From NCBI GenBank assembly GCA_002347645.1, contig DDYF01000034.1, positions 1,907 to 65,906 on the forward strand: a DNA stretch of 64,000 nucleotides, written 5' to 3'. Positions 1 through 17,890 of this stretch are shown here, in pieces. Source of the stretch: Thermoleophilia bacterium UBA2241. GTDB lineage: Bacteria; Actinomycetota; Thermoleophilia; UBA2241. The number at the start of each line of letters is the position of its first letter. Positions within the stretch are counted from its first letter, which is position 1. The translations under genes were made by a program, and so were the position numbers. The notes under the pieces are model-generated. The model worked only from the letters and a program-made list of their open reading frames with translations. It did no database searches and was not told where the DNA came from.

Positions 1-243
1 GCGAAGCTCAAACGCAGGCCCGATCACTCTGTTGCCCCGATCGAAGCCAGCGACAGGGGTGGGCTCGTCGTCGACATCGCCACGTTCGGTGGTACCATGG
101 CAATCAGGAGCGCATCTCACTCGGGGGACGTCATGAAGCACGCGCTGCCACGCCTGAATTCCGCCTGCTGCATCGCCCTCTTCTGCACGCTTGCCGCGGC
201 GCTGATGGTCGTGGGGCTCGCACTGGCCTGCTTCTGCGGGTGA
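1..243 (+). CDS. ORF open at the window edge (or a short ORF from ATG 97/133) ending in a Cys-rich hydrophobic tail; function unknown
   Basis: Frame 1 has no stop from nt 1 to TGA 241-243. The last 36 codons read MKHALPRLNSACCIALFCTLAAALMVVGLALACFCG. A strong hairpin follows. No family recognised. Confidence 0.3.
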   Translation, partial: AKLKRRPDHSVAPIEASDRGGLVVDIATFGGTMAIRSASHSGDVMKHALPRLNSACCIALFCTLAAALMVVGLALACFCG

Positions 244-5668: not shown

Positions 5669-6388
5669 ATGGAAGCTGAGCCGGAGCGAAGCGTCACCTA
5701 CACGATGCCGAACGGGGCCCAGATCGTGCTTCGTCAGCCGACCACACCCACGGCCGCCGATGTCGCGAGACGGTACCTGGACAAGGGGTTGTGGGAGCAG
5801 GCGATCGTCGAGCTCGAGAAGGCGCGACGCTCGAGCCCGGGCGACGCCGAGGTCTTCGGACTGCTCGGCTCCATCTACCTCGCGCACGACCGCTACGCCG
5901 ACGCAGTCTCCGCCCTCCAGGCGGCGACACGACTGGCGCCGGACGACGCGTGGTGGCGCTTCAAGCTCGGCGTCTCGCACGGATGGGCGGGCGATCAGGA
6001 TCGAAGGCGCACGGAGCTGGAGGCCGCCGTGGGCCTGCGCCCCGACTTCGCCGACGGCTACGCCGAGCTCGGACAGGCATACCACGACGAAGGCAGAGCG
6101 TCCGACGCGGTCGCCGCGTGGGAGAAGGCCGTCGCTCTCGGGTCGACTGTCGCCGAGGCTAGCTACAACCTCGGCGCCACGTACTTCCAGAGCGGTCGCG
6201 CCGAGCAGGCCGTGCCGCTCCTGGAAACGGCCGCACGCACGGGCACGGAGATACTCGCCGGTCACGCGCACTTCGCACTCGCGCTGACGTTCCAGGCTCT
6301 CGGAAGGGACCCCGAAGTCGTCGTAGGCGAGCTGCGGCAAGCGGCGGCGTTGGGCGACGAGCAGGCGCGGCAGATCCTGAGCCAGTGA
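5669..6388 (+). CDS. TPR-repeat protein (239 aa)
   Basis: Internal ATG (residue 103 of ORF 5363..6388), preceded by AGGAGG about 5 nt upstream. Repeated A..Y...G.....A...a..A..l.P TPR-like units. Its stop overlaps the GTG start of the next gene (GTGA at 6385-6388). Confidence 0.7.
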   Translation: MEAEPERSVTYTMPNGAQIVLRQPTTPTAADVARRYLDKGLWEQAIVELEKARRSSPGDAEVFGLLGSIYLAHDRYADAVSALQAATRLAPDDAWWRFKLGVSHGWAGDQDRRRTELEAAVGLRPDFADGYAELGQAYHDEGRASDAVAAWEKAVALGSTVAEASYNLGATYFQSGRAEQAVPLLETAARTGTEILAGHAHFALALTFQALGRDPEVVVGELRQAAALGDEQARQILSQ

Positions 6389-8439
6389 TCGCAAGGCGCG
6401 CGGCCGCTGAGCTGCGCCAGGTCTGGGGTGCCGTCACGCTCTCGGTCCCCGTCGTCGTGCAGGACCCAGCGCAGTTGGCAGGACAGCTCGTCGGCAGGCT
6501 TCTGGGCAGCGAAGGCCGAGGCGTCGCCAGACTGCTCCGGCAGGCTGAGCAGTGGCATGGGCGGCCGTGGCTCCGGCCTCTCGCTCCCAGCTTGGCGCCG
6601 GGAGGCGGGCCGCTGCGTCAGGCTCTTGTCATTCCCCAGCACCCAGTGAACGCTGGCGAGAGCCTCCCCAAGCCGGGCTACTTCGATGGCCTCATGGCGC
6701 CGGTCTACCGGCTCGCGGTGTCTACCGACGGCACCGTTGCCGTCGCGGCCGACCTCGAGGGTCATGTCCACGCATGGGACCTGACCTCGGGTGTTCGCCT
6801 GTGGGAGTGCGACGCGAGCGGGCGGCTTGCGGACGCGGTCGCGATCTCCCCCGACGCCAAGAGGGCGAGCGCCGCCTTCGATGATGGGAGCCTGACCACG
6901 TGGGATATGGCCACCGGCACACAGGTGTCGGTGACGCCAGCGCTCGGCGAGGTGGTGGCCCTGTCGCACGACGCCGGAGAACCGTGCGCGCTCGTGGCAC
7001 GCGACGGGCAGCTCTGGCTCTCGTGCGCCCACCGGCAGCGGGCGATACCGATCGGCGCTCTCCCCGCCGGCCTCGGGCCGGCAGCGCTCGCGCCGCGGTG
7101 CGGCCGAGTGGTCGCGGCCGACGGGAGCGATCTCTGGGTCTGGGACCCCGACGCGGGCCTCGTTGCCGGTCCGCTGCCGGGACACGACGACGCCATCCTG
7201 TGCCTGACGGTCACCCCGGATGGACGCCGGGCGGTGACCGGCTCGAAGGACAAGACGCTCATCGTGTGGGACAGCGAGTCGGGGAAGATCGTCTCCACGC
7301 TCATCGGTCATTCGGGTTTCGTGCTCGCCGTCTCCACGGGCACGGGAGCTTCGGGAGGCAGGGCGGTGTCCACGTCCATGGACCGGTCCGTGATCGTCTG
7401 GGATCTGGACGCGGGCGACGCGAGAGGCGTCCTCGATAGCCCCGTGAGCTTCGCGCGAGCGGCGATCTCGGCTGACGCGGCGACCGTGGTCACGACGACC
7501 CCGGAGCGCGCCCTGCGGATATGGGACCTCGGACGGTGGGAGGAGTCCTCCGCGGGTGACGCGGCGACGGACCTCGCCAACCTGGTCGCCGCGGCGCCGT
7601 CGTGCGACCGGTGCGTGATCGTCTCGTACACGGACAAGATCCGGCGGTGGGACCTGACGCCCTATGTGCGAGGCGGCATGCAGGTCGGCCAGAGCGGGAT
7701 CTTCGGTGTCTGGGCGCTCGCCGTGACCGCGGACGGGCGACGCGCGGTGACTGCCGGCTCGGGCCGCGACGTGGAGATCTGGGACCTCGAGGAACCCTCG
7801 CTCGTGCGGAGGTTCGAGGTCCCACACGAACGGATCAAGTCCGTCGCGGTGACTGCCGACGGAACACGCGTCGTCTCGATCGCCGATGAGTCGCTCGCCG
7901 TTTCCGACTTGGGAACCGGGCAGCTCCTGTCCCATGCCAAGATCAACGGAGTCGAACGTGTGCTTCCCACTGTCGAGGCAGATCGTGTGCTCGCCCTCGG
8001 CGCGCACTCACTGAGCGCTCTCGTGCTTCCGCCCGGTGGCGAGCCGAGCCTTGAGGCCGCCCTGGAGGACGCGTCGACGATCCTGCTGAGCCGCGACGGG
8101 CGCTCTGCGGTCCTGACGGACGAGTCAGGCCGAAGGTGGTTCGTGACGTTCGAGGGTGAGAGGCGCCGGGTGCCCCTGGCCGCCGCGGACGGGTTGTGGA
8201 GTCTGGCGGTGCCGCCGGGATCCGGACGCATCGTGGGCGCGGCGAGCTCGACGGACAGCCGCTCGACGCTGGTGGTCTCGGTGTGGGATGCCGAGACGGG
8301 GTGCCGGCTCGCCACGGCCTCGTTCTCGGGCGATCTGCGACCTCTCAAGTCGGCATCCGTCTCGCTCGACGGGACGCGAGTCCTGGTCTGTGACAACGGC
8401 GGGCGGACGCACTTCCTGGAGCTGTGCGGATTCGGCTGA
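6385..8439 (+). CDS. WD40/beta-propeller repeat protein 1 with a non-repeat N-terminal leader
   Basis: 684-aa ORF. Contains units such as GHDDAILCLTVTPDGRRAVTGSKDKTLIVWD and GHSGFVLAVS. The leader contains RPWLRPL before the first blade. Translationally coupled to the upstream TPR gene. Confidence 0.8.
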   Translation: MIARRAAAELRQVWGAVTLSVPVVVQDPAQLAGQLVGRLLGSEGRGVARLLRQAEQWHGRPWLRPLAPSLAPGGGPLRQALVIPQHPVNAGESLPKPGYFDGLMAPVYRLAVSTDGTVAVAADLEGHVHAWDLTSGVRLWECDASGRLADAVAISPDAKRASAAFDDGSLTTWDMATGTQVSVTPALGEVVALSHDAGEPCALVARDGQLWLSCAHRQRAIPIGALPAGLGPAALAPRCGRVVAADGSDLWVWDPDAGLVAGPLPGHDDAILCLTVTPDGRRAVTGSKDKTLIVWDSESGKIVSTLIGHSGFVLAVSTGTGASGGRAVSTSMDRSVIVWDLDAGDARGVLDSPVSFARAAISADAATVVTTTPERALRIWDLGRWEESSAGDAATDLANLVAAAPSCDRCVIVSYTDKIRRWDLTPYVRGGMQVGQSGIFGVWALAVTADGRRAVTAGSGRDVEIWDLEEPSLVRRFEVPHERIKSVAVTADGTRVVSIADESLAVSDLGTGQLLSHAKINGVERVLPTVEADRVLALGAHSLSALVLPPGGEPSLEAALEDASTILLSRDGRSAVLTDESGRRWFVTFEGERRRVPLAAADGLWSLAVPPGSGRIVGAASSTDSRSTLVVSVWDAETGCRLATASFSGDLRPLKSASVSLDGTRVLVCDNGGRTHFLELCGFG

Positions 8440-8527
8440 TCCGCCCTCCCGCAGTCCGGGCCGGACGCCCCGACGCAGGGCGAAGGCTGCGGGCGAGTCG
8501 CAGCGAGTCGTCACGGTTCTCGCGGGC

Positions 8528-8962
8528 TCACATCTCGACGCGCTTCTTGCCGCCCCACGTCGCCTTGATCTTGTCGTCGTACTCGTTGGTGCTGTACGCG
8601 ACCAGTTGGACGGCGAGCTCCAGCTCCGCCTGGTTCAGGTAGTCCCCGAGCAGCGCGTGCTCGACGTGGACCTCCTGACGCTCGGGGTAGAGGGCGAGCT
8701 TGCCGAACAGGATCTTGCTGTTCGCCTCCGCCAGGAAGATGCCGAGGTCGCCGTCGATGCGCATGCCCTTGACGCAGAGTGCCTCGACCTTCACCACCGT
8801 ACGCCCGTCGGGGAGCTCGCGCGGCATGACGAAGACCTGGACGCCCTGTTCGAACGGCAGGACGAGGTCCTCCTGCGCGTCGGTGAGGAACGGGATCCCG
8901 CTGTTCGTCAGGTAGCGCTTGCAGGCCTCGCGCAGCGCGGCGAGGTGGCTCTGTCCGGTCAC
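8528..8962 (-). CDS. small alpha/beta protein, tentatively YbjN/T3SS-chaperone-like
   Basis: GTG start at 8962 (residue 29 of ORF 8528..9046) overlaps the stop of the upstream gene (GTGA). 144 aa, VTGQSHLAALREACKRYL...LFGKLALYPERQEV...AYSTNEYDDKI. Family assignment is tentative. Confidence 0.55.
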   Translation of the reverse strand: MTGQSHLAALREACKRYLTNSGIPFLTDAQEDLVLPFEQGVQVFVMPRELPDGRTVVKVEALCVKGMRIDGDLGIFLAEANSKILFGKLALYPERQEVHVEHALLGDYLNQAELELAVQLVAYSTNEYDDKIKATWGGKKRVEM

Positions 8963-9414
8963 GACTGATCCTCCAGATCCCATCCGCACTTCCTGCACCA
9001 CTTCGCGTCGGGCGGGTTCATCGCCCCGCACCCGGGCCGCAGGCACTTGCGCGGCGCGGGGCCGGGCCCGCCCGCGGACTTGCCTTCTGCATCGTCCGCA
9101 CGCGCCGGGCCGCTGCTGTGCCCCACGAGCATCATCTCGGTCATGCCGACGCGGACGATGTCGCCCTCGTGCAGCGGGTGGCTGCCGGTGACCTCTGCCC
9201 CGTTCAGCCAGAACGTGACCTCGCAGGTCAGCTTCACTCCCTCGTCGCCGACCTCGAGCTCCACGTCGTCGAGGTCCTTCGGGCCGAGGCCGCTACCGGG
9301 CGGGGGACCGAGGACTTCGCCCTCGAGGACGACACCCTTGTCGGTGATCGCGAAGGTGAGCCCGTCGTTCGGCCCCGCGACGATCTCGAAGCCGGCCTGC
9401 CACTCGGCGCTCAC
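8959..9414 (-). CDS. FHA-like beta-sandwich protein with a C-terminal zinc ribbon
   Basis: 151-aa ORF. NGAEVTGSHPLHEGDIVRVGMTEMML resembles the C-terminal half of FHA domains, but the SR.H motif was not seen. The tail CLRPGCGAMNPPDAKWCRKCGWDL is a CxxC...CxxC ribbon. The GTG start overlaps the Clp stop. Confidence 0.6.
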   Translation of the reverse strand: MSAEWQAGFEIVAGPNDGLTFAITDKGVVLEGEVLGPPPGSGLGPKDLDDVELEVGDEGVKLTCEVTFWLNGAEVTGSHPLHEGDIVRVGMTEMMLVGHSSGPARADDAEGKSAGGPGPAPRKCLRPGCGAMNPPDAKWCRKCGWDLEDQS

Positions 9415-11807
9415 AGGGTACCGATCCCGTCCGGCGCCCGGGGGGCCTGGCGCGGCTCCACCTCGAACGCGAGCTTCTTGCCCTTCGTGCGCAAGCGTAC
9501 GGTGTCGTTCTCGTTCACGGTCCCCTTGAGCAGCTCGTTCGACAGCGGCTCGCGGACGAGGTCGTCGATCGTCCGCCGCAGCGGCCGGGCGCCCATGGCC
9601 GGGTCGAATCCGTGCTTCACGAGCAGGCCGAGGGCGCCCGGGGTGGCTTCGACGCGCATCGGCAGCCGGCTCAGCATGACCTTGGCGATGCGGCGCAGGT
9701 CCTTCTCCCCCAGGGCGTTGAACACGAGGATCTCGTCGAAGCGGTTGCGGAACTCGGGCGCGAAGGCGTCGGCCAGGTCGGCGTAGATGGCGCGCCGAAC
9801 CTCGTCCGCCGACGGCATCTCGTCCTTGACGATGCGCAGACCGAGGAAGCGCTTGCCGGAGATGCTCCGCGACCCGACGTTCGACGTCATGACGATGATC
9901 GCGTTGCGGAAGTCAGCTTGGCGCCCGAGGCCGTCCGTCAGCCTGCCCTCGTCCATCATGCCCAGTAGCAGGCTGTGGACGGCGGGGGCGGCCTTCTCCA
10001 CCTCGTCGAAGAGGACGACCGAATAGGGGTCCTTGCGGATCGCCTCGGTCAGCATGCCGCCCCGCTCCGAATTGACGTAGCCCGGCGGAGACCCAATCAA
10101 GCGCGACACGAAGTACTCGCTCGACGACTCACTCATGTCGATGCGGATAAGGCGGTCCTCGTCGTCGAAGAGCACCGCGGCCAGCGACTTGGCGAGCTCG
10201 GTCTTGCCGACCCCCGTGGGCCCCAGGAAGAGGAAGCAGCCGATCGGCCGCATGGGATCGCCGAACTTGGTGCGCGCGGTACGGATCGACTGGGCGACGG
10301 CGACGACGGCGTGGTCCTGCCCCACGACGCGCCTTCGCAGCGCGTCCTCGAGCTCCAGCAGCCGGTCGGCCTCGCTCGCCTTCACCTTGCCGACGGGGAT
10401 GCGGCGCCAGCTCGACACGGCCAGCGCGACCTCGTCGGCGGTGACGGCGAGGTCGGCGCCGGGCGCCGGGTTGCCGGCGTGCTCGAAGAGCGTGCGCCGC
10501 TGCTCCGGCGCGAGGTCGCTCAAGTCGAGGTCGCGGAGGCCCAGCCACGCGCGCATGCGGGTCTCGGCGCAACTGCGGTCGATGAGCTCGAGGGCCTTGT
10601 CGGGAAGGCGGCGGTCGGTCACGTAGCGCATCGACAGCTCCACGGCCGCGCGCACCGCGTCGTCGGTGATGCGGACGTTGTGGAACTCCTCGTAGCGGCT
10701 GCGCAGACCGGCGAGGATCTCGAGCACCTCGTCCGACCTCGGCTCGGGCACGCGCACCATGGCGAAGCGACGCTCGAGGGCGGGGTCCTTCTCGAAGTAC
10801 CGCCGGTACTCGTCGTGCGTCGTCGCGCCGATGACGGTGATCTCGCCGCGGCTGAGCGCCGGTTTGAGGATGTTGGCCGCGTCCATCGTGTCGTGCACGC
10901 CGACCGAGCCGGCGCCGACCAGCATGTGGATCTCGTCGATGAACAGGATCAGCTTGGGATCGTCCCGCGCCTCCTTGATGAGCGCCTGGAGCTTCTCCTC
11001 GAGGGTGCCGCGCACGCCGGTGCCGGCGACGATGTTGGCCACCTCGACGGTGCGGATGCGCTTGCCCATGAGCTGCGGTGGGACGTTGCCGTGCGCGATC
11101 AGCTGCGCGAGGCCTTCGACGACGGCCGTCTTGCCGGTTCCCGGGTCGCCCACGAGCACGGGGTTGTTCTTCTCGCTCTTGCAGAGGACGGAGATGAGCT
11201 GCAGCATCTCCATCTGGCGTCCGATGACGGGACGAAGCTTGCCGGCGCGCGCCAGGGCGGTGAGGTCGCGGCCGAGCGTCTCCATGAGCTCGCTCGACGA
11301 AGCCAGCTCGGGCTGCTCGATCGTGGTGCGGCCGCGGTAGGCGCTCTCGGTCCACTCGTAGGCGGCGATGAGGTCGCGGACCGTCTGGGCGAGTGCCGCG
11401 GGATCGGAGCCCATCGCCTTGAGCGTGCGCGCCGGCAGGCCGTGCTCCTCGGCGAGGACGGCGAGCAGGACGTGCGGCGCCCACACCACCTGTTCGGCGT
11501 TGTCCTTGGGCCGCACCGCCAGGGCGAGCCTCTCGGCCTCCTGCATGACGCGCTTCGCGCGCAGCGTCAGGCCGAGATCGTCGCCGTCCGGGAAGACCTC
11601 CCCGCTCGCCTTCTCGCGCACGCGGCGGGCGGCCTCACCGATGTCGGTGCCGGTGCCGGCGAAGCGCCGGAGCAGGCTGACGTCGTCGAGCGCGACCACG
11701 CCCAAGAAGAGGTGCTCGACGCCGAGATAGCGGTGGCCAAGATCGGCTCTCGCCCGCTCGGCATGCGAGACGACGAGCTTGGCCGAGTTGCCCAGTTCGA
11801 CGCCCAT
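9411..11807 (-). CDS. ClpA/ClpC-type two-ring AAA+ unfoldase (Clp_N repeats, no long M-domain)
   Basis: 798-aa ORF. Clp_N-like N-terminus (HRYLGVEHLFLGVV, APHVLLAVL). D1 has GDPGTGKTAVVEGLA and LFIDEIHMLVGAG. D2 has GPTGVGKTELAKSLA and VVLFDEVEKA. RFLGLR sits where ClpA has its IGL ClpP-docking loop. GAGGGGGG lies ahead of the ATG. Confidence 0.9.
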   Translation of the reverse strand: MGVELGNSAKLVVSHAERARADLGHRYLGVEHLFLGVVALDDVSLLRRFAGTGTDIGEAARRVREKASGEVFPDGDDLGLTLRAKRVMQEAERLALAVRPKDNAEQVVWAPHVLLAVLAEEHGLPARTLKAMGSDPAALAQTVRDLIAAYEWTESAYRGRTTIEQPELASSSELMETLGRDLTALARAGKLRPVIGRQMEMLQLISVLCKSEKNNPVLVGDPGTGKTAVVEGLAQLIAHGNVPPQLMGKRIRTVEVANIVAGTGVRGTLEEKLQALIKEARDDPKLILFIDEIHMLVGAGSVGVHDTMDAANILKPALSRGEITVIGATTHDEYRRYFEKDPALERRFAMVRVPEPRSDEVLEILAGLRSRYEEFHNVRITDDAVRAAVELSMRYVTDRRLPDKALELIDRSCAETRMRAWLGLRDLDLSDLAPEQRRTLFEHAGNPAPGADLAVTADEVALAVSSWRRIPVGKVKASEADRLLELEDALRRRVVGQDHAVVAVAQSIRTARTKFGDPMRPIGCFLFLGPTGVGKTELAKSLAAVLFDDEDRLIRIDMSESSSEYFVSRLIGSPPGYVNSERGGMLTEAIRKDPYSVVLFDEVEKAAPAVHSLLLGMMDEGRLTDGLGRQADFRNAIIVMTSNVGSRSISGKRFLGLRIVKDEMPSADEVRRAIYADLADAFAPEFRNRFDEILVFNALGEKDLRRIAKVMLSRLPMRVEATPGALGLLVKHGFDPAMGARPLRRTIDDLVREPLSNELLKGTVNENDTVRLRTKGKKLAFEVEPRQAPRAPDGIGTL

Positions 11808-11884: not shown

Positions 11885-12256
11885 TTACGCCCAAGCGATG
11901 AAGCCCAGGCCGCGGTCGGCGCAGATGCGGAAGAGCTTCCGCAGTTGGCGGATCTCATCGGGGGTGGGCGTGAATCGCTCACCGAGGTCGAGCCGATCGC
12001 AGACCGTCTCGGGGTCGCAGGCGCTGAGCTTGTCGGCCATCCCGGCGAGGGTCTCGGGCGGAAGCCACTCGTGGTAGAGCGACTCGCCGGTGACCTCCAG
12101 CACGAACTCCGCATAGACCTTGCCACGGAACGAGGTGACGCCGTCGCTGAACATCCCACCGCACAGGTCGATGCCGGACTCGGTGAGAGCGCGCTCGTCC
12201 TCGGGGGTGAGCACGACCTCGTCCGGCGAGCGCGAGACGACGTTGTCCAGTCCCAT
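11885..12256 (-). CDS. small-protein family member A1 (123 aa), first gene of the Clp operon
   Basis: Internal ATG (residue 219 of ORF 11885..12910; the upstream part is shadow of the + strand gene). MGLDNVVSRSPDEVVLTPEDE...SFRGKVY...WLPPE...DEIRQLRKLFRICADRGLGF aligns with four paralogs in this window. Confidence 0.7.
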   Translation of the reverse strand: MGLDNVVSRSPDEVVLTPEDERALTESGIDLCGGMFSDGVTSFRGKVYAEFVLEVTGESLYHEWLPPETLAGMADKLSACDPETVCDRLDLGERFTPTPDEIRQLRKLFRICADRGLGFIAWA

Positions 12257-12433
12257 CACTTCCCCTTCGTGCTCCTGTGCGGCAGGCGCGCCGCGCGGCG
12301 GCGTCGCCTGTCCGCGTCCCTCTGATTGATGCCAGAGTCTACCCACCGCAGGGCACTCCTTCGGCCGCTCGGGGGTACGATAGCGCCGAGGGGGCGAGGA
12401 GCCGCTCCTTCCGGCGACGCGAGGGGGTTGACA

Positions 12434-13942
12434 ATGGTATCTGACCAGCCCGACCAGTGCTTCGTCGTGATGCCGTTCGGGACCAAGCCGCTCAACGACG
12501 GCAGCGGCCGACTCTACGATTTCGACAGGGTCTATCGCGTCATCATCCAGCGCGCGATCCGGCAGGCGGGACTCGAGCCCGCGCGCGCCGACGAGCGCAA
12601 GGTCTCCGACATCATCCACGCCGACATGTTCAAGCAGCTGCGCGACCGCGGCGTGGTGCTCGCCGACCTCTCGCTGGAGAACCCGAACGTCTTCTACGAG
12701 CTCGGCGCCCGTCACGTGATGTCGGCCAAGGGCACGGTGCTCATGTGTCGCGCGGGGTCGGAACTGCCGTTCGACGTGAAGCTGTCGCGCGTCATCTTCT
12801 ACGACTTCGACGGCAGTCACCTCGACTGGGAGGAGGTCGAGCGCGTCGTCAAGGAGCTGCAGTTCGCCCTCGAGGAGGCCAAAAGGGGCACGCCCGACAG
12901 CCCCGTGCACGCGCTTCTGGAGCGGGTGCTGCCCGAGGAGGCCGCTGCACGGGAACGCGGCACAGCGGCCGGCGTCGACGAGGGCGGCGTCGACGAGTCA
13001 CTGGCCGACTTCCAGGGCATCGTGGCCGACCACTGGGCCAGTGAGGACACGCCGACGGACGAGCTGCTCGGCGTGTGCGGATCGTCGGTCTTCGGCTGCC
13101 GGGCGCTCGGGCTGCTGACGTTGACGAGAGAGACGCCGTCCGATGAGCTCTCGGCGGTGGCCAGGCGGCTCTACGACCTCTCCCAATTCGACCTCGCGAG
13201 CCGCCTCTACGAGCGCCTGGATGCACAGGGCACGCTGGGCGTCGCCGACCTCCTGGAGTACGGTTCCACGCTGTCCGAGCTGCGCTCGGACCTCGTCGCC
13301 GCGGACCAGGGCCTCGCCCAGATGCAGCGGGCGGCCGACATCCTGACGCCGCGGCTCGAGGAGGAGTCGCCCTCGCCCGAGACACTGCGGGACGGCTTCG
13401 CCTGCTATTACAGGATCGCCGGCCTGTACCGCTGGCGCTGGCAGCTGAGCCGCGACGAGGAAGACTTGACCCTGGCCATCGAGCACTATGAGCGGGCGAT
13501 GGGGGTCGGCAAGCGCCTCGACAAGGCGGCCGAGGACTTCGAGATCGGCCGCCTCGCCGCCTGCCACTTGGCGCTTCTCCTCCTGTTGCGCCTCCGCGAC
13601 GACAACCCCGACCGCGGCGACATCGAACGCCACCGGGAGCAGATCCTCAGCCTCAAGGTCGACGGCCGGCATAGCTTGGTGGAGGAGTCGTTCACCCGCT
13701 GGTGCCAAGCGATCGCGCTGGCCGACGGCGGCGACGCCAACGGCTCGAACCACATGGCCATGCACGCCTACTCCGAGGATGCCAAGGTCATGGACCAGCC
13801 GGGCTGCGAGGCGATCGGCCGCAAGCAGTATGCGGGTCTGCGGCGCTACCTCGAGCACTACTCGGGCGTCCTGCATCACCCCAGCCTCATCGGCCACATC
13901 TCGCAGGTGCTGCAGATCGGCCACCGGACGCAGGCGTCGTGA
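12434..13942 (+). CDS. TIR/nucleoside-2-deoxyribosyltransferase-like N-domain fused to TPR-like helical repeats
   Basis: ATG at residue 37 of ORF 12326..13942, with GAGGGGG upstream. The N-domain reads CFVVMPFGTKPL...YDFDRVY...VVLADLSLENPNVFYELGARH. The C-terminal ~350 aa are helical repeats. Confidence 0.75.
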   Translation: MVSDQPDQCFVVMPFGTKPLNDGSGRLYDFDRVYRVIIQRAIRQAGLEPARADERKVSDIIHADMFKQLRDRGVVLADLSLENPNVFYELGARHVMSAKGTVLMCRAGSELPFDVKLSRVIFYDFDGSHLDWEEVERVVKELQFALEEAKRGTPDSPVHALLERVLPEEAAARERGTAAGVDEGGVDESLADFQGIVADHWASEDTPTDELLGVCGSSVFGCRALGLLTLTRETPSDELSAVARRLYDLSQFDLASRLYERLDAQGTLGVADLLEYGSTLSELRSDLVAADQGLAQMQRAADILTPRLEEESPSPETLRDGFACYYRIAGLYRWRWQLSRDEEDLTLAIEHYERAMGVGKRLDKAAEDFEIGRLAACHLALLLLLRLRDDNPDRGDIERHREQILSLKVDGRHSLVEESFTRWCQAIALADGGDANGSNHMAMHAYSEDAKVMDQPGCEAIGRKQYAGLRRYLEHYSGVLHHPSLIGHISQVLQIGHRTQAS

Positions 13943-14295
13943 GCCTCGACGTCTTCCTGTCGCGGTCGCCGGACGACGTCGTCGTGGCGCCCGAGGACGA
14001 GGCTGCCTTCGCCGGGCTCAACGTCCACGTCAACGAGTGGGTCGGCACCGGCTCGTTTGGCGGCAAGAGATACATCGAGGTGGTCGACCACGTCGGCGAC
14101 GTCGTCCTGGGGTACAAGTGGGTCCCGCCCGAGGACGTCGTACGCATGGCCGCTGCGTTTGAGGCGCGCGACCCCGAAGAGGTCGCGCGCGAGAGCGTTG
14201 AGGACGCCTTTCCCGTCACCGCCGATCAGGTGCGCGGCCTGCGCCAGCTCTTCCGGTTCTGCGCGGACCGCGGCCTCGGGCTGCTCGGGATGTAG
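13939..14295 (+). CDS. small-protein family member A2 (118 aa)
   Basis: GTG at 13939 overlaps the upstream TGA (GTGA). VSLDVFLSRSPDDVVVAPEDE...GSFGGKRY...WVPPEDVVRMAAAFEARDPEEVA...TADQVRGLRQLFRFCADRGLGLLGM. Confidence 0.75.
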   Translation: MSLDVFLSRSPDDVVVAPEDEAAFAGLNVHVNEWVGTGSFGGKRYIEVVDHVGDVVLGYKWVPPEDVVRMAAAFEARDPEEVARESVEDAFPVTADQVRGLRQLFRFCADRGLGLLGM

Positions 14296-14315
14296 GGGAA
14301 GGAACGGCGAGAGTC

Positions 14316-16514
14316 GTGCCGGATGTCCTGAGTCAGACGCCAATGCGGGAGCGCCGAGCGGTACTCGCAGCGTTCTCCCGCGCCCTGGGTCGGGAGCTGC
14401 ACAACCTGCATTCCGCCGGCCTCGAGCGCTATCCTCAGTTCGTCTTCCAGCAGCTCTACAACCGGCTGCAGTGGGAGGACGGGCCGGTGGCCCCAGTACT
14501 CGAGCCACAGGTCCGCCGGCGCGCTACGCCTGAAGCCCCCCCGTGGCTGCACCAACTCACGCGCGTTTGCGAATCGTCGGCCTATGTCCGCACCCTGGCC
14601 TTTCACGCGGACGTCTGCGCCTGCAGCGTCTCCCCCGACGGGGCGACGGTGCTCTCGGCGGGCGGCCGAAGCCTGAAGCTCTGGGACGCGGACACGGGCG
14701 AGACGCGCGCCACCCTGGAGGGTCACAAGGACCAGGTGAGAGGCTGCGCTTTCTCACCCGACGCCCGCACCGTCCTTTCGGCGAGCGACGACAAGACCCT
14801 CAAGCTCTGGGACGCGGACACGGGCGAGGAGCGCCGCACCCTCGTCGGGCACACGGGAGTCGTGGCGGCCTGCGACTTCTCGCCCGACGGACGGACGATC
14901 GTCTCGGCGAGCGGGGACCAGACCCTGAGGCTCTGGGATGCTCAGACGGGCGCTGAACGCCTCACCCTGACCGGGCACACCGGCGCTCTGAGCGCCTGCG
15001 CCTTCTCGCCTGACGGCCGGACGGTGGTCTCGGCCAGCTACGACGAGACCCTGAAGCTCTGGGACGCGCGCACGGGAGAGGAGCGCCGCACCCTTGCGGG
15101 GCACGAGGAGTTCGTGGAGGCCTGCGCCTTCTCGCCTGACGGGGAGACGGTCGTCTCGGCGAGCTACGACAGGTGTTTGAAGCTCTGGGGCGCGCACAGC
15201 GGCGAGGAGCGCGCCACCCTGGAAGGTCACAAGCATTGGGTCACAGGCTGCGCCTTCTCCCCCGACGGCGAGACGGTCGTGTCGGCGAGCAGGGACGGGA
15301 CCCTGAAGCTCTGGGACGCACGCACGGGGGAGGAGCGACGCACCCTCGTCGGGCACACTTCTGTCAGCGCCTGCGCCTTCTCCCCCGACGGCGTGACGAT
15401 CGTATCGGCGGGGGACGGGGACCTTCGGCTGTGGGACGCGCGCGCAGACCAGGAGCGCCTCTTCTCCTCCTCCGGCCACGAGGACGCCGTCACGGCCTGC
15501 GCCTTCTCGCCTGATGGGCGGACGATCGCCTCGGGAAGCCACGATGAGACCGTCAAGCTCTGGGACGCGCAGGCGGGAGCAGAGCGCCTCACCTTCCACG
15601 GGCATACCGGCCATGTCAGCGTGTGCACCTTCTCACCCGACGGGGAGACGGTCGTCTCGGCGGGTTGGGACGGTACGGTCAAGCTCTGGGACGTGAGCAC
15701 GGGCGCGGAGCGCCGCACCCTCGGCCGGCAAGGTGGCCATGTCGACGCCTGCGCCGTCTCGCCCGACGGCAAGTCGATCCTCTCAGCGGCGGCCGGAGCC
15801 CTGAGGATCTGGGACGCCGGCTCCGGCGAGCTGCGGCTCACCGTCGACGGACCCGAGACAATGGCCGGCCCGGCGAGGGTGGGCGCCTGCGCCTTCTCCG
15901 CTGACGGAAGGACGATCATCTCGGCAAGTCTCGGCATCACCCTCAACACGTGGGACGTGCAGACGGGAGAGGAGGGCCGGACCGCGAGGGGCAAGGCGGG
16001 CTATGTCGACGTCTACGCGTTCTCGCCCGACGGGACGGCGGTCGTGTCGGCGAGTCGCGGTGGCATCCTCCGGCTGTGGGACGTCGACACAGGATCGTTG
16101 CGCGTCACCATCACCGGGCACACGGACACGGTCGGGGCCTGCGCCATCTCGCCCGACGGGTCGGCGGTCGCCTCGGCGGGGCACGACAGGACCCTGAGGC
16201 TATGGGACGCGCGGACCGGCGCTGAGGTCGTGAGCTTCACTGCTCCCGGCGCCCTCGGCGCCTGCGCCCTCAGCCCGGCCGGTGACCGCGTTTGCTGCGG
16301 GGATGGCGCCGGGATCGTGTACATCCTGGAACCGATGGGAGCCCTCGGTGCGGTCTTGCCGCAGACCGGGGCCGTGAAGCCTCGGGTCACCGGAGACGGG
16401 GACGAGGCGGCTAGTTCCGACGGCGACTTCGTCTGCCGCCACTGCGGTGCCGCCGCCCAGCGCGGCGCGCTCTGGTGCCCGGCCTGCGGGCGGGACCTCG
16501 AGACGGCTCGATGA
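14316..16514 (+). CDS. WD40 repeat protein 2 (about 14 blades) with an N-terminal helical leader and a C-terminal zinc ribbon
   Basis: 732-aa ORF. Leader is AFSRALGRELHNL...YPQFVFQQLYNRLQWED...PPWLHQL. About 14 units of type LKLWDARTGEERRTL.GH...V.ACAFSPDG.TVVSAS.D.T. Tail is FVCRHCGAAAQRGALWCPACGRDL. Confidence 0.9.
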   Translation: MPDVLSQTPMRERRAVLAAFSRALGRELHNLHSAGLERYPQFVFQQLYNRLQWEDGPVAPVLEPQVRRRATPEAPPWLHQLTRVCESSAYVRTLAFHADVCACSVSPDGATVLSAGGRSLKLWDADTGETRATLEGHKDQVRGCAFSPDARTVLSASDDKTLKLWDADTGEERRTLVGHTGVVAACDFSPDGRTIVSASGDQTLRLWDAQTGAERLTLTGHTGALSACAFSPDGRTVVSASYDETLKLWDARTGEERRTLAGHEEFVEACAFSPDGETVVSASYDRCLKLWGAHSGEERATLEGHKHWVTGCAFSPDGETVVSASRDGTLKLWDARTGEERRTLVGHTSVSACAFSPDGVTIVSAGDGDLRLWDARADQERLFSSSGHEDAVTACAFSPDGRTIASGSHDETVKLWDAQAGAERLTFHGHTGHVSVCTFSPDGETVVSAGWDGTVKLWDVSTGAERRTLGRQGGHVDACAVSPDGKSILSAAAGALRIWDAGSGELRLTVDGPETMAGPARVGACAFSADGRTIISASLGITLNTWDVQTGEEGRTARGKAGYVDVYAFSPDGTAVVSASRGGILRLWDVDTGSLRVTITGHTDTVGACAISPDGSAVASAGHDRTLRLWDARTGAEVVSFTAPGALGACALSPAGDRVCCGDGAGIVYILEPMGALGAVLPQTGAVKPRVTGDGDEAASSDGDFVCRHCGAAAQRGALWCPACGRDLETAR
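14589..16331 (+). repeat. tandem ~126-nt WD40 coding units with high unit-to-unit nucleotide similarity
   Basis: Recurrent strings such as aagctctgggacgcg...gagcgccgcaccct...gcctgcgccttctcgcc(c/t)gacgg appear with a 126-nt period through the gene. Confidence 0.85.
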
Positions 16515-16606
16515 GGGCGGGATCCTGAGTCGGTGGGCCCGCGTCGTCCGTCAGCAGGGACTCACCGCGCTGACGAGACCAAGAAGCTGCTGGGAGTGTG
16601 GATCTG

Positions 16607-17002
16607 ATGAGGCCTCTGCCGTGTCTCTTCGGAATGCACCTCTGGGACCACTGCCGCTGCGCACGATGCGGGGCGCTGCGTGACCACGAGCACGACTGGC
16701 AGGGGACCTGCACGTGCGCCGTCTGCGGAGCCACCAGGAACGAACACCACCAGTGGGTCGGATGCCGATGCCGGATGTGCGGCGCGGAGTTGCATAAGTT
16801 CATCCCCGCCGGCCCCGAAGAGCACAGCTGCCGGCGGTGCGGCCTCGTCGAGCCGCATGCGCTCGTGACCGATGCGCGCTGGGAGGACTGGGGTGGGTGG
16901 GACTCGATCGGGCCGTGGCGGGCGCAGGAGAACGAGTATCTGATCTGTCGCCGGTGCGGGTGGGAGGAGTTCGTCAAGTCCACGGGGAGGATCCAGGTCT
17001 AG
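16607..17002 (+). CDS. Cys/His/Trp-rich small protein with three tandem H.W..C.C..CG units plus a terminal CxxC
   Basis: MRPLPCLFGMHLWDHCRCARCGALRDHEHDWQGTCTCAVCGATRNEHHQWVGCRCRMCGAELH...CRRCG...ICRRCGWEEF. GGGAG lies about 10 nt upstream of ATG 16607. No family recognised. Confidence 0.5.
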   Translation: MRPLPCLFGMHLWDHCRCARCGALRDHEHDWQGTCTCAVCGATRNEHHQWVGCRCRMCGAELHKFIPAGPEEHSCRRCGLVEPHALVTDARWEDWGGWDSIGPWRAQENEYLICRRCGWEEFVKSTGRIQV

Positions 17003-17148: not shown

Positions 17149-17514
17149 ATGGGTCTCGACACCTATCCGTCGCGAGGTCCGGGCGAGTGCGTCCTGACGC
17201 CAGAGGATGAAGCGGCACTGGCCGAGCTCGGCCTTCCGCTCTGCGGCTTCGGCCTGCACGCGAGCTTCCGCGGCAAGGTCTACGAGGATGTCGTGAACCG
17301 CGTCACCGGTGGCGCCCGGTCCCTCTACGAGCTGTGGATGCCGCCCGAGGGCGTCGCCGAGATGGCGGCGGCGTTCGAGGCCTGCGACCCGGAAGCGGTC
17401 GCGCAGGCCTCGAAGGGCGATTACTACCCGGCCACCGCCGACGAGGTCAGAGCGCTGCGCCGCCTGTTCCGGCTCTTCGCCGACCTCGGCCTCGGCCTGT
17501 ACGCGGACGTCTGA
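17149..17514 (+). CDS. small-protein family member A3 (121 aa)
   Basis: ATG at residue 105 of ORF 16837..17514, with GAAGGATGAGGA upstream. MGLDTYPSRGPGECVLTPEDE...SFRGKVY...WMPPEGVAEMAAAFEACDPEAVAQA...TADEVRALRRLFRLFADLGLGL. Confidence 0.75.
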   Translation: MGLDTYPSRGPGECVLTPEDEAALAELGLPLCGFGLHASFRGKVYEDVVNRVTGGARSLYELWMPPEGVAEMAAAFEACDPEAVAQASKGDYYPATADEVRALRRLFRLFADLGLGLYADV

Positions 17515-17530
17515 GGCACGAGGTCGCACG

Positions 17531-17890
17531 GTGGGACTCGACACCTCCGCCTCGCGTGAGCCCGACCGCATTGTCCTGACGCCGGAGGACGAGACCGTGT
17601 TCAAAGCGCTGCGCCTCCCGCTGTGCGAGTGGATCGGCGACGGCTCGTTCCGCGGCAAGGTCTACATCGACGTGGTCGACGCCGTCGCCGGAGTCTGCCT
17701 GACCGCGGACTGGATCACGCCCGAGGAGGTCGCCGAGATGGCGGCGGCCTTCGAGGCCTGCGACCCGGAAGCGGTCGCGCAGGCCACGGCCGACGACCGC
17801 TACGACACGAGCGCCGACGAGGTGCGCGCCCTGCGACGATTGCTGCGCATCTGCGCCGATCGTGGCCTTGGGCTCGTGGGGTCGTGGTGA
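17531..17890 (+). CDS. small-protein family member A4 (119 aa), tandem to A3
   Basis: GTG at residue 75 of ORF 17309..17890. VGLDTSASREPDRIVLTPEDE...GSFRGKVY...WITPEEVAEMAAAFEACDPEAVAQA...SADEVRALRRLLRICADRGLGLVGSW. Confidence 0.75.
   Translation: MGLDTSASREPDRIVLTPEDETVFKALRLPLCEWIGDGSFRGKVYIDVVDAVAGVCLTADWITPEEVAEMAAAFEACDPEAVAQATADDRYDTSADEVRALRRLLRICADRGLGLVGSW

Follow-up and report, generated by a model that had tools for sequence, protein, structure and literature searches.

Among the NOD-like receptors (NLRs) of fungi, WD40 repeats with high internal conservation (HIC) are 80-100% identical to each other (PMC12222747), and in Podospora HET-E/D four codons, one pair in the d-a loop and one pair in the b-c turn, are under positive selection (PMC1805685). 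The repeats of bacterial NLRs might diversify like the fungal ones (Dyrka et al. 2020). Conserved repeats with diverse hotspot sites have been described in prokaryotic WD40 proteins, where a highly repetitive (HR) class with a cut-off of 0.7 is distinguished from a 'moderately repetitive' (MR) class (Hu et al. 2017; PMC5587647), and Apaf1-like WD40 propellers have been reported as sensors of defence-associated bacterial signal transduction ATPases with numerous domains (STANDs) (PMC13581612). In preprints, NWD1, NWD2, TEP1 and NPHP3 are given the order DUF4062, NACHT, helical domain and WD40, and DUF4062 is described as a TIR-like NADase with roles in anti-phage defence (Swarozyc, Evangelion) and in TEP1 (10.64898/2026.05.01.722283). 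Here, we describe W2, a gene encoding a stand-alone WD40 protein in a stretch of 64,000 nucleotides, referred to as the window, from Thermoleophilia bacterium UBA2241 (GenBank assembly GCA_002347645.1, contig DDYF01000034.1, positions 1,907 to 65,906). W2 probably encodes, as a gene of its own, the sensor subunit of an immune system that is NLR-like, split and of the NWD1/TEP1/Apaf-1 type. Its repeat pattern is already known in kind from the fungal NLRs and the prokaryotic WD40 proteins, and is attenuated in W2, while no description of a split multi-sensor organization around a repeat-less DUF4062-NACHT protein was found in the literature searched.

W2 and the separate DUF4062-NACHT gene

The GC content is ~70% across the window, and within positions 14202-16514 the only reading frame with coding-type GC3 is the forward-strand open reading frame (ORF) at 14316-16514 (GC3 0.85). 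Its GTG start codon is found ~10 nt past a Shine-Dalgarno sequence (GGAAGGA) and 20 nt past the stop codon of a small upstream gene, with an alternative ATG start at 14343. The encoded protein is made up of a 77-aa N-terminal region, 14 WD40 units and a 64-aa tail with a zinc ribbon, and the features are as follows, all on the forward strand:

14316-16514, W2, gene of a stand-alone WD40 protein of 732 aa (ORF and translation)
14316-14546, N-terminal helical domain (~70 aa; four helices within aa 2-69) and lead-in strand (DSSP of the AlphaFold2 model)
14547-16319 (aa 78-668), 14 WD40 units in two seven-bladed propellers (unit table, strand pattern of the AlphaFold2 model)
14673-15677, regular core of the array, units 2-9 (identity matrices; Tandem Repeats Finder at 14672-15770)
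15678-16319, degenerate blades, units 10-14 (unit table, identity matrices, strand pattern)
16434-16487, C-terminal CxxC...CxxC zinc ribbon, C707-C724 (Pfam)

The AlphaFold2 (AF2) model of W2 (pLDDT 90.7, pTM 0.85) has 14 blades of four strands each. In Foldseek searches the top PDB match was the 'highly repetitive propeller' 2YMU from Nostoc (43% identity), followed by Apaf-1 with a TMq of 0.65 over ~700 columns, including the helical lead-in, and the Pfam WD40 family PF00400 was matched in 11 stretches of W2 (E=1e-129). The zinc ribbon, which is preceded by a disordered linker (aa 686-703, pLDDT <50), matches Zn_Ribbon_1 (E=2.3e-4) and DZR (5.6e-4), both under the gathering score; tails of the same type are found in the paralog W4 and in gene C of the related locus L001. 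A Pfam scan identified no NTPase family in W2, and the 77 N-terminal residues are helical without a P-loop and show no match to any Pfam family. The repeat pattern of W2 had been likened to that of fungal NLR-type proteins in a preliminary description made from the sequence alone. With the NTPase domain absent, and neither NACHT nor NB-ARC present in one polypeptide with the repeats, W2 is not itself an NLR or STAND protein. Short contigs identical to W2 were found in sludge RNA runs, one of which crosses the junction between the small upstream gene and W2 (14223-14373).

An NTPase, the putative partner of the WD40 proteins, has a gene of its own further downstream, and there are several WD40 paralogs in the same window:

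6385-8439, forward strand, W1, a divergent WD40 paralog without NTPase, with a ...PWLRPL... lead-in
18413-20587, reverse strand, W3, a more divergent WD40 paralog without NTPase, with an N-terminal region of the W2 type
20935-23391 (stop-to-stop frame), forward strand, W4, the closest paralog of W2, with helical N-domain, WD40 array and zinc ribbon
23541-26120, forward strand, repeat-less DUF4062-NACHT STAND NTPase (Pfam NACHT E=1.2e-10, DUF4062 E=1.8e-10)

W4 is located directly upstream of the DUF4062-NACHT gene, which is ~7 kb downstream of W2. The two halves of the proposed system are collinear with a single fused homolog, P0210 (1604 aa). Residues 1-843 of P0210 align end to end with residues 12-856 of the window NACHT protein (38% identity, E=9e-145), while residues 927-1584 align with residues 3-666 of W2 (51% identity), and the N-domain of W2 is thus internal in the fused protein (aa 927-1014). 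P0156 shows the same junction, the N-domain coming after the NACHT C-terminal region. In the fused homologs, a linker of ~80 aa joins the NACHT and WD40 halves (P0210 aa 843-927) where the window genes are split, and the linker of P0156 (aa ~330-380) has a zinc-ribbon-like insert, CxxC...CxxxxC. The adjacency of the split genes is conserved, as solo WD40 genes adjoin a repeat-less DUF4062-NACHT gene in L081 (three WD40 genes), L083 and L084, which are unrelated metagenome contigs, and in L001, which is syntenic with the window. The split form is thereby seen in five independent contigs, the window included, and it is unlikely that the NTPase-less state of W2 is an assembly artefact.

The N-domain of W2 was used as a 95-aa query against 1.84 billion representative proteins. 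It was identified in 418 representatives, and in almost all of the best 150 of these it forms the extreme N-terminus of proteins of 700-1100 aa. A role of the domain as the NACHT-to-WD linker common to the fused top matches was also considered; it was rejected, since the domain was seen at N-termini only in the best 120 WD40 matches. In most close homologs of W2 there is a fusion to an NB-ARC, NACHT, caspase or TIR domain. PADLOC gave only a marginal match to Avs1b for the NACHT gene (E=3.6e-4), and Pfam searches with the N-domain, the small upstream protein and the NACHT C-terminus gave nothing, or marginal matches to APAF1_C and HTH_NWD1 (E ~0.1).

Repeat units and their variable positions

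The ~14 WD40 units of the preliminary description were recovered as 14 units at aa 78-668 (nt 14547-16319), and all of the residue strings it had listed after GH, before the Cys and in the SAS.D.. turn were located in them. Ten of the 14 units are 42 aa long and the remaining four 40, 43, 41 and 47 aa, the unit reported as 2 aa short being unit 7 (40 aa). Tandem Repeats Finder detected a period of 126 nt at 14672-15770 (score 681), and a DNA profile of the unit gave 13 matches inside the W2 ORF, with E values down to 4e-32. The units had been called highly regular, which holds for units 2-9 (pairwise identity 52-78% in protein and 61-79% in DNA), but not for units 1 and 10-14, which are degenerate. 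In units 10-14, GH is replaced by RQ, GP, GK or AP, and unit 11 has a 5-aa insertion within the d-a loop. Likewise, the two DNA motifs quoted as evidence of similarity between units do recur, 11 and 10 times with 0-3 mismatches, but the likeness mostly reflects amino-acid conservation and codon bias. At conserved residues the same codon was used in 0.651 of the unit pairs, compared to 0.528 expected from the codon usage of the genome, and some position-specific codon sharing is left (e.g., TCG 11/12 and ACC 11/12).

An even spread of the variable positions, which the preliminary description had named as speaking against its own reading, was not observed, as variation over the 42 unit columns is non-uniform (index of dispersion 1.94, chi2 p=3e-4). 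Six columns of the top face (GH+1..3, V+1 and S-x-D-x) hold 28% of all differences, where 14% were expected, and the ten most variable columns hold 46% (expected 24%). Identity between units is 0.63 over the 35 scaffold positions and 0.13 at the six positions. The columns flanking the V after GH and the D of S-x-D-x (29, 31, 47 and 49) rank 1, 5, 3 and 4 of 42, the probability that all four fall in the top five by chance being 4.5e-5. These four columns are the homologues of the codons selected in HET-E/D.

In the AF2 model, the six variable positions are placed in the d-a loop, in the b-c turn and near the start of strand a, at its second residue. The d-a loop, the start of strand a and the b-c turn make up the top, ligand-binding face of a WD40 propeller. 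The variable residues of W2 are thus on the top face by AF2/DSSP topology, as had been proposed. All three of the places to which variation had been assigned were found to vary, but so do WDA-x, ER-x, TL-x-GH and SPDG-x, which belong to the c-d loop (WDA-x), strand d (ER-x, TL-x-GH) and the a-b loop (SPDG-x). W2 accordingly has the hypervariable residues of HIC repeats in the d-a loop and the b-c turn, with columns 9, 15, 19 and 40 variable in addition. The x-positions that are variable in W2 are also variable in the family consensus of 63 homologs from many phyla.

Age of the array, alleles and related loci

The W2 units were compared with the thresholds for the HR class (internal identity of at least 0.7; Hu et al. 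2017) and for fungal HIC repeats (80-100%). Internal identity in W2 is ~0.62, which is below both and makes W2 'moderately repetitive', and for the best six of eight contiguous units the minimum pairwise identity is 62%. The synonymous divergence (dS) between units is ~0.6, near saturation and about three quarters of the way to random, compared to 0.16-0.24 in related arrays, and the synonymous signal of shared descent has decayed to about a quarter. The longest exact repeat within W2 is 27 nt, while repeats of at least 58 nt are found in its HIC relatives (arrays A and E). The nearest neighbours of each W2 unit are all in W2 (68% identity within the array, 56-65% to other arrays), and the nearest-neighbour comparison showed no exchange of units with paralogs (W4) or other arrays. 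The array arose by duplication of units inside the gene, and its 42-aa pattern goes back to the highly repetitive WD40 class of bacteria and fungi. The non-synonymous divergence (dN) at the six top-face sites is nominally 1.35, with a dS of 0.6, but both values are near saturation and the sites were partly chosen post hoc; with codon bias strong and synonymous sites close to saturated, dN/dS is unreliable in W2 and was not used as evidence. The W2 array is old and stabilized, with no detectable repeat shuffling, its scaffold being held at 63% identity by purifying selection while top-face residues have diversified fully across the 14 blades (13%).

No ortholog of W2 above ~56% protein identity was found in genome contigs, and alleles were therefore compared in metagenome contigs from eight runs aligned to W2, two of which (X6 and X7) share single-nucleotide polymorphisms (SNPs) and are possibly not independent of each other. 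An exact match to the window was seen in one contig, and identity is 99-100% in the others. The contigs of the eight runs contain no indels in W2, and no joints at a likeness cut-off of 95%. Joints reported at first came from paralogous contigs (X1 record 2, 82-90% identical in short pieces) and vanish at this cut-off; they are not repeat-number variants. The 14 SNPs in W2 comprise nine synonymous and five non-synonymous changes (rough pN/pS ~0.2), and none of them is at a hypervariable position. The present W2 allele is under purifying selection. The preliminary description had regarded a lack of repeat-number or repeat-content polymorphism as an argument against its reading, and none was found across the eight runs. 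W2 was found in many metagenomes of sludge, wastewater, hydrocarbon, wetland, soil, biofilm and digester origin, and the same allele (99-100%) is present in runs X1-X19 of varied origin and date (hydrocarbon 2014; sludge, wastewater, wetland, soil, biofilm and digester 2022-2025). These near-identical alleles across metagenomes of such varied origin suggest a widespread and nearly clonal organism. A 1161-nt contig from run X2 is continuous with W2, and 11 of its 12 differences are clustered in a stretch of ~55 nt inside the small upstream gene (13987-14041). The cluster resembles a patch of gene conversion by a paralogous copy, with cross-assembly of paralogs as another possibility.

The closest related locus, L001, is from an uncultured Thermoleophilia metagenome-assembled genome (MAG) and contains a TIR-like/TPR-S gene, small genes, five WD40 arrays, a DUF4062-NACHT gene, an AAA gene and a TrkA_N/RyR gene. 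In L001, and in L002 from a Gemmatimonadota MAG, true HIC WD40 arrays with 80-90% DNA identity between units were identified at 408-1898 and 14363-15970 (L001) and at 441-2063 and 8260-8715 (L002):

L001-A, mean unit DNA identity 90%, dS 0.16, dN at the six sites 0.58, dN elsewhere 0.05
L001-E, mean unit DNA identity 83%, dS 0.24, dN at the six sites 0.86, dN elsewhere 0.10
L002-G1, unit DNA identity ~80%, dS 0.47, dN at the six sites 0.88, dN elsewhere 0.10
L002-G3, unit DNA identity 87%, dS 0.23, dN at the six sites 0.69, dN elsewhere 0.05

Variation in these arrays is almost confined to the six positions that vary in W2, and dN at the top-face codons is ~2-3.6 times dS. The six sites had been defined from W2 and from WD40 topology, so that the relatives provide an independent test. 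The L001 arrays carry many frameshifts, probably long-read errors, and the short-read L002 arrays agree with them. Shuffling, concerted evolution and diversifying selection of the fungal type had been proposed for W2 itself; this regime was observed in the arrays of its relatives, but not in W2, where identity, dS, the 27-nt repeat and the stable alleles all disagree with it. The family thus follows the diversifying regime, and W2 is its aged, stabilized member. Between the window and L001 the flanking DNA is 81-84% identical, while the best match of W2 in L001 is only 69%, and the number of WD40 genes differs, which shows that the sensor genes turn over faster than the island.

The gene that ends 20 nt upstream of W2 belongs to a family of ~118-aa proteins with four intact copies and one degraded copy beside the WD40 genes of the window. 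Only 14 homologs, none of them named, were found in 5.8 billion proteins. The AF2 model of the small protein is alpha+beta (pLDDT 93), and no significant fold match was found in the PDB (best YfbM, E=0.11). The small genes and the remaining neighbours are:

11888-12256, reverse strand, ~118-aa family
13936-14295, forward strand, ~118-aa family, the 119-aa protein gene upstream of W2
17149-17514, forward strand, ~118-aa family
17531-17890, forward strand, ~118-aa family
~20614-20930, forward strand, ~118-aa family, degraded copy upstream of W4 with an internal deletion and a frameshift
8528-11807, reverse strand, apparent three-gene operon encoding a double AAA+ ATPase that is ClpB-like (798 aa), a protein of 151 aa and a chaperone-like protein of the TY-Chap1/YbjN type
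12326-13942, forward strand, gene for a protein that is TIR-like at its N-terminus (E=4.9e-8 with the TIR effector model of PADLOC) and weakly matches TPR-S
16598-17002, forward strand, Cys/His-rich ORF of 134 aa
23541-30730, conserved three-gene block encoding the DUF4062-NACHT protein, a protein of 701 aa whose C-terminal part has an AAA/nSTAND5-like P-loop, and a TrkA_N + RyR protein

The three-gene block is 83.5% identical in DNA to L001, and TrkA_N and RyR genes are found beside the NACHT gene in L084 as well. The TIR-like gene, which is 81% identical in DNA to L001, is located directly upstream of the small gene and W2. The 151-aa protein of the ClpB operon ends in a zinc ribbon like that of W2, and a Clp_N gene adjoins the NACHT gene in L083. 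The ORF just downstream of W2 (16598-17002) showed no family match; it is probably a real gene, as 81% DNA identity is kept in L001 (7460-7868).

Proposed role of W2 and comparison with described systems

Based on the collinearity with the fused homologs and the conserved neighbourhood, we infer that W2 acts in immunity in trans with the NACHT protein. The double seven-bladed propeller would bind its ligand via the top face, the most plausible candidate being a protein from an invading element, and the helical N-domain may serve as a docking or linker module that couples W2 to the DUF4062-NACHT protein. Binding of the ligand would permit NACHT oligomerization and, in turn, activation of the TIR-like NADase. 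The four sensor genes W1-W4 could then share a single NTPase/effector gene, widening the range of recognition. A more tentative extension of this scheme, to which we give somewhat less than even weight, is 'one executioner, many sensors': one DUF4062-NACHT gene would be served in trans by three to five WD40 sensors with N-terminal docking domains, and the sensors would be gained, lost and replaced faster than the island, passing from an active HIC state to a frozen one such as that of W2.

Several observations weigh against W2 as a sensor subunit of the NACHT protein. W3, on the opposite strand, and W4 are located between W2 and the NACHT gene, and W4 could be its sole true partner. The top and bottom faces were assigned from DSSP strand topology and established WD40 geometry and not from coordinates, and several of the variable columns are in bottom-face loops or in strand d. 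No known defence system in the window was recognized by PADLOC and NCBIfam. The RNA-run contigs hint at transcription of W2, but their depth is low and they may derive from DNA carry-over. As to its stability, the sampled populations are almost clonal, and the polymorphism test therefore spans a short time.

Three other explanations were considered. W2 could be an actively diversifying HIC sensor, in which unequal recombination shuffles and homogenizes the repeats while diversifying selection acts on the top face. The higher identity within the array than to other arrays, the residual codon sharing and the nominally high dN of the six sites (1.35) would fit such a process, in which the relatives clearly take part. 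However, the W2 units are under both the HR and the HIC thresholds in protein and DNA identity, their synonymous sites are roughly three-quarters randomized, which makes dN/dS unreliable, exact repeats reach no further than 27 nt, and the eight metagenome runs show neither repeat-number nor hypervariable-site polymorphism, with SNPs that are mostly synonymous. We regard active diversification of W2 as unlikely.

An ordinary scaffold WD40 protein outside immunity would also show differing surface residues, as the blades of any propeller do, and the variable positions of W2 correspond both to the interaction hotspots that Hu et al. (2017) noted for WD40 proteins in general and to the positions that vary across the 63 homologs; nor did any PADLOC defence model match. 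Against this, the fused homolog bears DUF4062-NACHT, the WD40 genes are adjacent to DUF4062-NACHT in five loci, fusions to NB-ARC, NACHT, caspase or TIR prevail among the close homologs, and the island also contains a gene of the TIR-like effector type, a ClpB-like ATPase and a family of several sensor genes that turns over in copy number, all of which makes a role as ordinary scaffold improbable. It is very unlikely that W2 is the decaying, no longer functional remnant of a broken NLR gene. The absence of the NTPase, the degenerate C-terminal blades and the degraded small-gene copy upstream of W4 point in that direction, but the 732-aa ORF is intact with a GC3 of 0.85, the AF2 model is confident through both propellers, population SNPs are nine synonymous to five non-synonymous, and contigs of RNA runs match W2. 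Moreover, the N-domain is N-terminal in hundreds of proteins, and the split form is thus the norm. A separately encoded sensor subunit is the reading of W2 that we retain as probable.

Compared to the HET-E/HET-D/HNWD proteins of P. anserina, W2 has the same 42-aa units with the consensus GH-xxx-V-x-x-AFSPDG...S-x-D-x-T-hK-hWD, the same top variability at the pairs in the d-a loop and the b-c turn, and a predicted double propeller, and in both cases the array is the sensor of a NACHT-type system, which for W2 is a proposal. Unlike W2, with its 52-78% identity and no polymorphism found, the fungal HNWD repeats are 80-100% identical through concerted evolution and strain-polymorphic in number, and HET, NACHT and WD40 are present in one polypeptide, whereas W2 is without an NTPase. 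W2 shows how such an array appears once homogenization has stopped. The bacterial HR/MR WD40 proteins (Hu et al. 2017; 2YMU from Nostoc) share with W2 the 14 blades and the conserved repeats with diverse hotspot sites; compared to the HR class (at least 0.7), W2 is an MR protein (~0.62) and has its own N-terminal helical domain and zinc ribbon.

The main interest of the locus is that the sensor half is encoded apart from the NACHT/TIR-like NADase half, in several paralogs, and that this recurs in unrelated bacteria. If the parts act in trans, the split would offer a modular route to a wider recognition repertoire, and a tractable system for studies of how WD40 propellers gate NACHT oligomerization, with sensors that can be swapped as whole genes. 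The characterized WD40 STANDs of the Avs/bNACHT type are single polypeptides, while the window system is split. NWD1, NWD2, TEP1 and the Apaf-1 STANDs have DUF4062 or CARD, NACHT or NB-ARC, a helical domain and WD40 in that order, from which the system proposed here differs in that the nucleotide-binding oligomerization domain (NOD) and the sensor are separate genes, with four sensors per NOD gene in the window. The same order is nevertheless reconstituted by the NACHT gene together with W2, and is found fused in P0210.

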